Positions 314 to 41,340 of a stretch of DNA of 41,422 bases are shown piece by piece. Origin of the DNA: an uncultured bacterium (GTDB lineage Bacteria; Vulcanimicrobiota; JAJTBE01; CAZSLZ01); the NCBI GenBank assembly GCA_964607865.1, contig CAZSLZ010000008.1, forward strand, positions 1-41,422. Reading direction: 5' to 3'. Every line of letters starts with the position of its first letter. The first letter of the stretch is position 1. The position numbers and the translations under genes are program-made. The notes under the pieces are model-generated. The model worked only from the letters and a program-made list of their open reading frames with translations, was not told the origin of the DNA and made no database searches.

Positions 314-337
314 GTTTTCCCGTAAATAACCAAATTT

Positions 338-520
338 TGTCATGCGTGGTTTCGAAGAAACCGCGGCAATCTCAATTTAGATCTTGTTTGTTACCAACCC
401 ATTTACCTGAGGGGTACAGAGATCACTACGCATCCTGCGGATGCCCGTGATGACGAATCATGTGTAGATTTCGTTTTTTTCCTTGAACAATTGTTGAAAT
501 TTTCTGGTAATCAGTAAAAT
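338..520 (+). repeat. Mosaic structured intergenic repeat, copy 1 (modules A, B and D)
   Basis: Module B, acagagatcactacgcatcctgcggatgcccgtgatgacgaa, is near-identical to 41235-41277 and 28266-28312, and to 6967-7010 on the minus strand. Upstream module A (gaaaccgcggcaatctcaatttagatc...ccaacccatttacc) matches the 6903-6960 region in reverse complement. The about 60-nt 3' tail, tgtgtagatttcgtttttt...caacaattgttgaaattttctggtaatcagta, matches 41283-41337. Confidence 0.65.
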
Positions 521-6902: not shown

Positions 6903-7030
6903 TTTGGTAAATGGGTTGGAAACCAACCCGATCCAAATTAAGATTGCCGCGGTTTCTGCCGTTTGCCTTCGTCATCACGAGCATCCGTAAGGATGCGTGG
7001 TGATCTCTGTATCGCTCAGGTAAATGGTTT
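6903..7030 (-). repeat. Mosaic structured intergenic repeat, copy 2 (minus-strand orientation, with the modules rearranged to B then A)
   Basis: The reverse complement reads ccatttacctgagcgatacagagatcaccacgcatccttacggatgctcgtgatgacgaaggcaaacggcagaaaccgcggcaatcttaatttggatcgggttggtttccaacccatttacc. It matches modules A and B of copy 1, but with module A placed 3' of B. A ccatttacc string occurs at both ends. Confidence 0.6.
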
Positions 7031-14768: not shown

Positions 14769-15005
14769 ATGAAAAAGTCAGTGGGTGTTTATTTTCTTTC
14801 ATTAATAACTATTCTTATATTATGCCAGGGTTTTCTGCCGGTTTTAGCAAGCCCCAGGAAACCCGATTATTGCTTTGCTCAAAAATATTCAGCAGGGGAA
14901 GTTTACGAAAACCCCGACAAGGCAAAAGAATTTCTAACAGTAGTTTCGCATTATGAAAAAAAATATTTTTTTCATAATGCGAAACTACTGCCCGATCTAA
15001 ACTGA
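14769..15005 (+). CDS. Possible small secreted protein whose C-terminus is encoded by a long palindrome
   Basis: A GGGGAGG RBS precedes ATG 14769. The signal peptide is MKKSVGVYFLSLITILILCQGFLPVLASP. The last roughly 18 codons are supplied by the 14938-14992 inverted repeat, so coding status is uncertain. Confidence 0.3.
   Translation: MKKSVGVYFLSLITILILCQGFLPVLASPRKPDYCFAQKYSAGEVYENPDKAKEFLTVVSHYEKKYFFHNAKLLPDLN
14938..14992. repeat. Near-perfect 26-bp inverted repeat (cagtagtttcgcattatgaaaaaaaa / ttttttttcataatgcgaaactactg)
   Basis: Visible directly in the sequence. It produces mirror-image ORFs on both strands (VVSHYEKKYFFHNAKLL on the plus strand and AVVSHYEKNIFFHNAKLL on the minus strand). 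It lies between the convergent small ORF and gcvPB. Confidence 0.7.
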
Positions 15006-15062
15006 GATTGCCACGCCTCTTTGAGGCTCTCAATGGCAAATTTGAGATTCTTTTAGAAAATC

Positions 15063-15094
15063 TAAAAGGAGCCATCCTTTTGGGACAGCTCCAT
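15063..15094. terminator. Conserved GGGACAGC hairpin (aaaaggagccatccttttgggacagctccatt), a probable bidirectional terminator
   Basis: It lies 22 nt downstream of the gcvPB stop on the minus strand. The same core sequence occurs at 281, 23141, 28340 and 34637. Confidence 0.5.
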
Positions 15095-15115
15095 TATTAT
15101 TTTAAAACCTTTTTT

Positions 15116-23140: not shown

Positions 23141-23176
23141 AAAGAGGCCATCCTTGTGGGACAGCCCCTTAATTTT
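23141..23176. terminator. Conserved GGGACAGC hairpin (aaagaggccatccttgtgggacagccccttaatttt)
   Basis: It lies 10 nt downstream of the htrA stop on the minus strand and belongs to the same family as 281, 15063, 28340 and 34637. Confidence 0.5.
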
Positions 23177-28094: not shown

Positions 28095-28325
28095 CTGCAG
28101 GGGTTTTCCATACCCACTTACATGGGTGGTACAGATCGCCACGTCGCTAGTCGCGATGACAGTTTTTGAGAGTTGGCTCCCAACCCAGATACCTTGCGTT
28201 CGTGAGCGCCTGGATCTTTTTCATTTTTCATCCAACTGTATTGCGAACAATATGTTCACCAATTCCAAATGGGGAGAGAGCGCCACGCATGCTGGGGATG
28301 CCCGTGATGACGAAATTAGAATTTT
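28095..28325 (+). repeat. Mosaic structured intergenic repeat, copy 3 (a degenerate B' module, a C module and a B module)
   Basis: The region 28266-28312, ggggagagagcgccacgcatgctggggatgcccgtgatgacgaa, is a B-module copy. The region 28235-28270, attgcgaacaatatgttcaccaattccaaatgg, matches 41207-41240. The region 28128-28160, tacagatcgccacgtcgctagtcgcgatgacag, is a degenerate second B-like unit. Confidence 0.6.
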
Positions 28326-28339
28326 TCAACTTGTAAACA

Positions 28340-28369
28340 AAGGGGCTGCCCTTTTGGGACAGCTCCTGT
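28340..28369. terminator. Conserved GGGACAGC hairpin (aaaggggctgcccttttgggacagctcctg)
   Basis: The stem gctgccc/gggacagc lies between the repeat copy and the minus-strand ackA stop at 28424. Confidence 0.5.
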
Positions 28370-28423
28370 AAAATCCTGTTCTGTTTTAATTTGATCTTAT
28401 TTTTGGGGAAGTCAGTATTCAGG

Positions 28424-34622: not shown

Positions 34623-34636
34623 TTCCTTCTATGTAA

Positions 34637-34669
34637 AAGAAGCTGCCCTGAAAGGACAGCCCTTTTTTT
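34637..34669. terminator. Bidirectional terminator hairpin (aagaagctgccctgaaaggacagcccttttttt), a variant of the GGGACAGC family
   Basis: It lies between the convergent WYL gene (ends at 34622) and the HD-GYP gene (ends at 34676). The T-run is on the plus strand and an A-run on the minus strand. Confidence 0.55.
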
Positions 34670-41164: not shown

Positions 41165-41340
41165 CTCAGAAGTCCGTCACATTTCCATAGTCCGTTATGT
41201 TGTCATTGCCAACAATATGTTCCCCCATTCCAAATGAGGAGAGATCGCCACGCATCCTGTGGATGCTCGTGATGACGAATTCTGTGTAGATTTCGTTTTT
41301 TCTTTCAACAATCGTTGAAGTTTTCTGGAAATCAGTATAT
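41165..41340 (+). repeat. Mosaic structured intergenic repeat, copy 4 (modules C, B and D)
   Basis: The region 41235-41277, ggagagatcgccacgcatcctgtggatgctcgtgatgacgaa, is module B. The region 41283-41337 matches the 3' tail of copy 1 (461-515). The region 41207-41240 matches the C module of copy 3. Confidence 0.65.

Follow-up and report, generated by a model that had tools for sequence, protein, structure and literature searches.

Paired intergenic hairpins with the marks of CGTC-tagged repeats in a genome of the Vulcanimicrobiota

Organization of the repeats on the contig

The 41,422-nt contig CAZSLZ010000008.1 (assembly GCA_964607865.1), referred to below as the window because it is the whole stretch of DNA that was analysed, comes from a metagenome-assembled genome (MAG) of an uncultured bacterium in the phylum Vulcanimicrobiota. 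It carries a family of short hairpin repeats, and the genes that flank them are ordinary chromosomal ones, for ankyrin-repeat proteins, an encapsulin, Nramp, GcvP subunit 2 and acetate kinase; the last has 100% identity to a protein from a Vulcanimicrobiota MAG. All of the repeat units are intergenic and are located between convergent or co-directional genes. We assign them, with a probability of roughly 0.8, to the DNA repeats described as CGTC-tagged repetitive extragenic palindromes (REPs) or Ssn-related motifs (SRMs), here arranged as inverted pairs of two different hairpins that resemble REPINs (REP doublets forming hairpins) and have no nuclease gene between them.

A search of the window with a covariance model of the unit (R1, filters off) detected four strong hairpin units of about 41 nt and three weaker ones. 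A first-pass annotation of the sequence had described a repeat with four copies, and this family proved to be real and far beyond chance. Its core consensus is found at 421-457, 28278-28314 and 41243-41279 with 0-2 mismatches (0 expected, from 100 shuffles), and a fourth time on the minus strand at 6968-7012. The annotated coordinates were off by a few bases. Of the weaker units, those at 15002-15040 (-) and 28130-28163 (-) had been missed, and the one at 336-375 (+) corresponds to the annotated module A.

The first element spans about 120 bp: a partner hairpin in forward orientation is followed, after a spacer of 41 nt, by a reverse unit of the ATCAC type, and the two tags face outward. The partner hairpin (336-375, +; R1 15.6 bits, E=0.0095) is degenerate; it consists of a TGTC tag, CAT-GCG, the stem TGGTTTC/GAAACCG and CG-GCAAT-C, and forms a 9-bp hairpin on folding. 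The spacer (376-416, tcaatttagatc...ccaacccatttacctgaggggtaca) was delimited by inverted repeats and by reading of the sequence, and its 3' part is found again before the units at 6968-7009 and 28130-28163. Strong unit 1 occupies 417-457 and has its CGTC strand on the minus strand (R1 45.6 bits, E=4e-12; also a pattern match), where it reads TTCGTC-ATCAC-GGG-CATCC-GCA-GGATG-CGTA-GTGAT-CTCTG. A 59-nt tail (458-516, +) follows on the tag side of the unit, which is the side of the cleavage predicted below, and recurs in copy 4. This tail contains the palindrome aacaattgtt/caacaatcgttg and a T-run. Neither a third copy nor a match elsewhere was found beyond the two in the window, where a possible shortened remnant lies at 28315-28338.

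In the second element, strong unit 2 (6968-7009; R1 52.7 bits, E=3e-14) has its CGTC strand on the plus strand and reads TTCGTC-ATCAC-GAG-CATCC-GTAA-GGATG-CGTG-GTGAT-CTCTG. A copy of the spacer end, aaccatttacctgagcgata, adjoins it at 7010-7030 on the minus strand (396-436 versus 6990-7030, an inverted repeat of 90%). The 3' half of a partner hairpin, together with the spacer, is found after rather than before the unit (6906-6957, -; 88% complementary to 356-407). The order in copy 2 (6906-7030) is spacer end, unit, 11 nt, 3' half of the partner hairpin and spacer, as if copy 1 had been circularly permuted or two truncated elements lay next to each other.

The third element combines the segment ATTGC-GA-ACA-ATA-TGT-TCAC-CAAT-TC (28240-28268, +; defined by reading of the sequence) with strong unit 3 (28274-28314, -; R1 38.8 bits). 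This unit is decaying, as its outer helix has two mismatches and its inner helix one. It is also present in a second assembly, GCA_046542775.1 (locus L110), which is 99.95% identical over 12.5 kb and is the only other assembly of the region. The fourth element pairs TGTC-ATTGC-CAACAATATGTT... (41205-41233, +), a repeat shared with 28240-28314, with strong unit 4 (41239-41279, -; R1 48.6 bits, E=5e-13; TTCGTC-ATCAC-GAG-CATCC-ACA-GGATG-CGTG-GCGAT-CTCTC), followed by the second copy of the tail (41280-41337, +). There are two further units. The one at 15002-15040 (-; R1 24.9 bits, E=1.2e-5), TTTGCC-ATTGA-GAG-CCTC-AAA-GAGG-CGTG-GCAAT-CTCAG, is a solo decayed unit with an outer helix of the ATTG./GCAAT type. 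That at 28130-28163 (-; R1 20.3 bits, E=3e-4), TGTC-ATCGC-GA..GTG-GCGAT-C, is short, lacks an inner helix and is preceded by the spacer-end copy mentioned above.

The copies form a mosaic of modules, as the first-pass annotation had recognized: module A occurs in copies 1 and 2 (356-407 versus 6906-6957, 88%), module C in copies 3 and 4 (28240-28314 versus 41205-41279 including the core, 89%), and the tail, put at about 60 nt, in copies 1 and 4. However, module A and probably also module C, both of which had been taken for separate flanking modules, are degenerate partner hairpins of the same family as the core, in inverted orientation. Each element is thus a REPIN-like dimer. Module C (28240-28268 and 41205-41233), which falls below detection by R1 in the window, is, judging from its sequence, probably a decayed partner of the ATTGC type.

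Architecture and covariation of the hairpin unit

The natural reading of the unit is on the strand opposite to the plus strand chosen in the first-pass annotation, since the second hairpin that lies upstream of most relatives shares the design of the reverse complement of the core. On this CGTC strand, the unit reads TTCGTC-ATCAC-GAG-(variable stem-loop)-CGTG-GTGAT-C, and the general layout is GTC, a 5-bp outer helix (h1), GAG, a variable inner stem-loop (h2), CGTG, h1' and C. The TTCGTC tag is present in all four strong units; the units at 336-375 and 28130-28163 carry TGTC, and that at 15002-15040 a decayed TGCC. The stems in the window comprise 5 bp, the GAG/CGTG irregularity and a further 5-6 bp, and are closed by a loop of 3-4 nt. 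After the palindrome, the window units keep the conserved C in a CTCTG or CTCTC tail, and most relatives have CCAG or CTC.

The nested helices that had been proposed, GCATCC/GGATGC inside ATCAC/GTGAT, fold as described, and the loops do differ (TGC, TTAC, TGG and TGT). The GATC said to be common to all copies is GAGC in copy 3, which also has mismatches in both helices. As a core feature the GATC is incidental: it arises where the helix end, GTGAT, meets the conserved C, and the ATTGC-type relatives, which are commoner, do not have it.

We aligned 70 units (alignment A1), drawn from the matches listed in the genome scan described below. Columns G4, T5 and C6, like the C that follows the palindrome (C36), do not vary, and the first two stem pairs (AT...AT; pairs 7-37 and 8-36) are invariant in 69-70 of the 70 units, those of the window included. 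Pairing cells amounted to 88.6%, as compared to 68.4% in shuffles (0/500) and 18-62% in slid controls, and the covariation score was 0.451 against 0.156. Double changes were seen at all six inner-helix pairs. Since the regular expression demanded a perfect outer helix, only the inner-helix statistics are independent. For the outer helix, the evidence is the existence of compensated paralogue types, namely ATCAC/GTGAT, ATTGC/GCAAT, ATTCT/AGAAT and ATGGC/GCCAT. The commonest non-pairs of the inner helix are tandem G.A/A.G (60 cells), which are stable on the CGTC strand only, an indirect hint that this strand is the one recognized. The hairpins of the window copies fold stably on either strand.

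Two other structures were considered and rejected. A long-range hairpin between the halves of a dimer is ruled out, as the outer helices compensate within each unit and not between units. A ribozyme or K-turn, suggested by the CUGAUGA-like GUGAUGA and by C/D-box-like motifs, was dropped because GTGAT is paired and covarying and no Rfam model fits.

Relatives in other genomes

When one genome per species was scanned with GATCNCNACG-N13-19-CGTGATGACGAA, at least 109 loci were obtained. About a third of the matches were coding false positives in high-GC genomes, such as Paraburkholderia, and the rest were intergenic and of low GC content. More than 60 such loci, from many phyla, are among the matches listed, with Rickettsiales, Holosporales, Gammaproteobacteria, Patescibacteria, Aminicenantes, Kordia, Melainabacteria, Firmicutes and others as hosts. 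Many genomes had several matches, in which the stem-loop between the conserved flanks varies from copy to copy, and a second hairpin, CGTC-ATTGC-GAG...CGTG-GCAAT-CC, lies upstream of most of them.

The matches listed gave at least 131 distinct units with the consensus GTC-h1-GAG-h2-CGTG-h1'-CCAG/CTC. Their h1 types, counted over 162 units, were mainly ATCAC (74) and ATTGC (55), followed by ATTCT (6) and ATGGC (4). Neighbouring units were convergent in 43 of 68 pairs, which were mostly heterodimers with spacers of 4-50 nt, and copy 1 of the window has this same orientation that dominates among neighbours elsewhere.

An identical 35-nt unit, GATCACCACGTCGCTTCGCTCCTCGTGATGACGAA, was observed in loci L006, L031, L065 and L087, and with one change in L040. 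The hosts are MAGs assigned to Eubacteriales, Alphaproteobacteria and others, and the one-base variant is in a Chloroflexota MAG. The identity of the unit across such MAGs implies either very strong constraint or horizontal spread. In eight loci (L002, L019, L045, L049, L067, L104, L065 and L108), arrays of half-sites lie on the tag side of full units; they comprise, on the CGTC strand, only the tag, the outer helix and the 5' arm, for example gctcctcgtgatgacga every ~25 nt. The tail of copies 1 and 4 in the window occupies the position of these arrays, which is also the predicted cut side of the nuclease.

The window-specific core gave no match in a metagenome scan, and a scan of viral contigs gave three, all of them coding false positives of high GC content. 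In about 55 kb from relatives of the host (~70% acetate-kinase identity), no unit scored above 14 bits, as compared to seven units in the 41 kb of the window; synteny downstream of acetate kinase is lost in these relatives.

Association of the hairpin design with ssn-like genes

The NTS, an oriented version of the neisserial repeat dRS3 with the sequence CGTCATTCCCGCGMAVGCGGGAATCYRG, has relatives termed SRMs (Chenal 2025, PMC11893778). These motifs flank, often on both sides, genes for SsnA, a nuclease of about 94 amino acids with a single GIY-YIG domain (cd10448) (PMC11893778). In two loci of our genome scan, L065 and L108, a GIY-YIG gene of about 95 codons is located between a forward and a reverse unit, with half-site arrays upstream. 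The encoded proteins contain PF01541 only and match weakly to the UPF0213 structure 1zg2.

A metagenome scan with the L065 and L108 proteins found 569 relatives, of which the best 80 loci (316 kb) were analysed. These ssn-centred loci contained 286 R1 matches at E<=0.01. With a strict regular expression, 316 units were counted as against 9.5 in shuffles, with a peak at <=250 nt from the gene. In the 64 loci with >=250 nt on both sides, a forward unit lay within 150 nt upstream of the gene in 33, a reverse unit within the same distance downstream in 42, and both in 26. The outer helix was mostly ATTGC (203 units), then ATTCC, ATCGC and others, and NTS-like units such as TGTCATTCCCGCGCAAGCGGGAATCCAG occur in the same set as the long units. 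A link of the window's ATCAC type to ssn is seen in L065, and a clearer one in L214 and L215, whose ssn gene is flanked on both sides by complete ATTGC(+)-31 nt-ATCAC(-) dimers; the ssn of the latter two loci is 69% identical to that of L065. All-against-all clustering of open reading frames (ORFs) around 44 loci revealed no other gene family recurring near the units, the GIY-YIG gene being present in three loci.

The design found most often beside these ssn relatives is ATTGC/ATCAC with the GAG/CG(T/A)(G/A) irregularity and a variable inner helix. The published SRM pattern, HGTCWYN(0-2)YYVSBRHN(0-5)WNVSBRGN(0-2)RNCYNB, recognizes only ATTCCC-type units in the ssn-centred loci (17 of 316). Since it misses the commonest hairpin design beside these ssn relatives, published SRM census figures are probably underestimates.

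Loci L200-L209, from different samples, have an identical Ssn protein (P0023) encoded between gatB and a pilin-like gene, and their downstream intergenic array of units varies from 129 to 562 nt. The differing array length beside an identical Ssn implies that units are gained and lost at the strain level, whatever the mechanism of this turnover. In L029 (1-420), an ssn-like gene without its 5' end directly follows the end of another ORF and keeps its downstream reverse unit (outer helix ATCAT/ATGAT).

Assignment to a known repeat class

CGTC-tagged REPs are defined by an unpaired CGTC or TGTC tag (variant CCTC), AT in stem positions 1-2 and a short unpaired tail, mostly CCA (Di Nocera 2013, PMC3733652). 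They form mostly dimers in opposite orientation, often heterodimers with spacers of 20-100 bp, lie between convergent or co-directional genes and differ strongly in copy number between related genomes (PMC3733652). The families CGTC-1 to -4, which include Neisseria dRS3 and Rickettsia RPE-4/RPE-6, have stems of 8-9 bp and loops of 4-5 nt; they were reported from five phyla, Vulcanimicrobiota not among them, and no dedicated enzyme or transposase was found for them in that study (PMC3733652).

The window elements share with these REPs the tag, the AT start, the opposite-orientation dimers that are often heterodimers, the intergenic position and a copy number that varies between related genomes, and in their tail they keep the conserved C. 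With the SRMs and the NTS they share an oriented hairpin with the CGTC tag 5' of the palindrome, a stem that starts with AT and a C just after the palindrome. The likeness extends, in the relatives, to a C-Y-R-G-like tail in most units, to hundreds of intergenic copies in some genomes and, in other genomes, to the placement of the design on both sides of a gene for a ~94-aa single-domain GIY-YIG protein. Unlike the 28-nt NTS, however, the units are 38-45 nt long, with the GAG/CGTG stem irregularity and a second, freely covarying helix; those of the window type are also heterodimers of two outer-helix types (ATTGC with ATCAC), and their host is a Vulcanimicrobiota MAG. Compared by text descriptions, they fall outside the four CGTC families, as their stems consist of 5 bp, the irregularity and 5-6 bp and their loops are 3-4 nt.

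Several observations weigh against the assignment. The published SRM pattern matches none of the seven window segments and none of 91 long units. The stems of the window units exceed the 8-9 bp of the four families in length and have more interruptions, and the tail is CTCTG rather than CCAG or CCA. ATCAC-type units beside ssn were not seen in the 80 metagenome loci and are found in L065, L214 and L215 only. By tblastn, the 41,422 nt contain no ssn-like gene or ORF. Finally, the partner hairpins are degenerate and copy 3 is decaying, and the elements may be fossils here.

On balance, the elements are long, interrupted-stem, heterodimeric CGTC-REP/SRM units from a phylum not listed before, and neither a new RNA class nor a new element type. 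A match to a REP/MITE family already on record, which the first-pass annotation had named as an outcome that would refute it, was obtained, in that the units show the features by which CGTC-tagged REPs and SRMs are defined. The first-pass annotation was correct that a riboswitch is unlikely and that no transposase is present in the window, and its option of a REP-like or miniature mobile element was right in kind. Of its further option, a family of small RNAs that use the hairpin as a protein-binding or processing site, the protein binding was right in spirit and the small RNA has no support. The repeat, conspicuous and intergenic in a phylum that is poorly known (Vulcanimicrobiota/Eremiobacterota), can now be filed under CGTC-tagged REPs and SRMs and need not be taken for a new RNA or mobile element.

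A variant of this assignment is that the repeats belong to the SRM class and are inactive in this genome, having no nuclease left and serving as neutral intergenic DNA or as substrates of recombination. The decay of partner hairpins A and C, the mismatches of copy 3 in both helices, the decayed units at 15002 and 28130 and the lack of an ssn gene in the window would all fit such fossils, and the mosaic of modules suggests recombination rather than clean transposition. Against this stand three units with the full signature and perfect or near-perfect helices (45-53 bits), the 90% identity of copies 1 and 4 over 62 nt, which suggests a recent duplication, and the abundance of units in the window relative to the related sequences. 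We consider such inactivity unlikely.

An action at the level of RNA is considerably less probable. Elements transcribed at the 3' ends of genes could act as small RNAs, terminators, or mRNA-stabilizing or processing sites, and the units are indeed all intergenic, downstream of genes or between convergent ones, with hairpins that are stable on either strand and a weak stem plus T-run after units 1 and 4; transcription of many REPs has been argued for by Di Nocera et al. (PMC3733652). However, no Rfam family reached the gathering score in the window, eight related loci gave tRNAs only, and all that relaxed thresholds added in 280-620 were matches by chance to the terminator next to it. The upstream gene's terminator-like hairpin precedes copy 1, and a terminator scan found none at the tail. 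Relative to the upstream gene, the CGTC strand has no constant orientation, being opposite in copies 1, 3 and 4 and the same in copy 2, and the inner-helix G.T cells (12) barely exceed the A.C cells (7). Moreover, units of this design bracket a nuclease gene in other genomes, and SsnA does not bind RNA (PMC11893778).

Single-strand transposition systems resemble the window elements in part. REPINs of the RAYT (REP-associated tyrosine transposase) system also consist of two inverted hairpin repeats and a spacer, are non-autonomous and have an enzyme gene flanked by the same repeats, but their tag is GTAG and their enzyme a Y1/HUH transposase with covalent intermediates rather than a hydrolytic GIY-YIG nuclease, and no RAYT is associated here. 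IS200/IS605 elements, with the derived PATEs and MITEs (palindrome-associated and miniature inverted-repeat transposable elements, respectively), likewise have an imperfect hairpin that is recognized as single-stranded DNA and cleaved a short distance from its foot; their ends are on the same strand and autonomous copies carry TnpA/TnpB, neither of which applies to the window elements. Despite the REPIN-like architecture of two inverted hairpins and a short spacer and the hairpin ends typical of HUH/Y1 single-strand transposons, an origin as REPs of a RAYT or as a MITE from IS200/IS605 with subterminal hairpins is hardly tenable, as the tag is CGTC and not GTAG, the ORF clustering around the 44 loci revealed no common transposase family, the only gene found bracketed encodes a GIY-YIG nuclease, and IS200/IS605 ends have the same orientation and are not inverted.

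Proposed mechanism and mobility

SsnA binds its motif as single-stranded DNA only, and not as duplex, as RNA or in the form of the reverse strand; it cuts a few nucleotides upstream, 5' of the tag (PMC11893778). Cutting depends critically on the 3 nt before the palindrome and binding on the C that follows it, and the enzyme can cut with the halves of the motif on separate oligonucleotides (PMC11893778). In Neisseria it restricts transformation, and the NTS-ssnA-NTS layout has been likened to an insertion sequence (PMC11893778).

By analogy with the systems of Neisseria, N. elongata, N. wadsworthii and Wolbachia, the hairpin of a CGTC-tagged unit would extrude when the DNA is single-stranded, during replication, repair or transformation. 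The expected enzyme, an Ssn-family nuclease of ~94 aa with GIY-YIG as its single domain, would bind the extruded hairpin and make its nick a few nucleotides 5' of the tag. Because the tags of a dimer face outward on opposite strands, the predicted nicks would bracket the ~120-bp element, in the case of copy 1 at about 330-336 (+) and 458-463 (-). Such nicks could underlie the spread of the dimers or modulate recombination. From the same analogy we infer that this genome may encode a cognate Ssn, that it would cut at the window units, and that this cutting would lie behind the effects on spread or recombination.

A more tentative possibility is that the gene-less ATTGC/ATCAC dimers are non-autonomous mobile elements moved in trans by a nuclease of this family, with the outward tags directing nicks to the two ends of the dimer, on opposite strands. 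If so, they would represent a system like REPIN/RAYT, parasitic or domesticated, that relies on a hydrolytic GIY-YIG nuclease; we know of no demonstration in bacteria of a GIY-YIG-based transposition or homing route of this kind. Compatible with such mobility are the near-identical 35-nt units in distant phyla, the varying number of units in L200-L209 and the many units in the lineage of the window with almost none in its relatives. Chenal et al. put forward the idea of mobility as a hypothesis only (PMC11893778). The heterodimers with outward tags, which are complete on both sides of ssn genes, provide a concrete and testable model for the excision or copying of these repeats.

Other features of the window

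A second family of hairpins, AAAGGGGCTGTCCC..GGGACAGCCCCTTT, is found at the ends of convergent genes at 281-312, 15065-15096, 23141-23172, 28339-28370 and 34636-34667. These hairpins are probably shared bidirectional terminators, and a terminator scan called 281-311 terminator-like. In three of the five cases, a CGTC unit has its tag side 23-24 nt away (336, 15040 and 28314), a spacing that may hint at a preferred position of the units.

Just upstream of the decayed unit at 15002-15040, positions 14938-14990 contain a perfect inverted repeat of 25 bp whose arms are 3 nt apart, CAGTAGTTTCGCATTATGAAAAAAA tat TTTTTTTCATAATGCGAAACTACTG.

The window is an entire contig, and its ends lie 335 nt from element 1 and 85 nt from element 4. 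An independent short-read contig (SRR11308339, L194) stops about 9 nt short of copy 4, and it is probable that assemblies of this genome are broken by the repeats.

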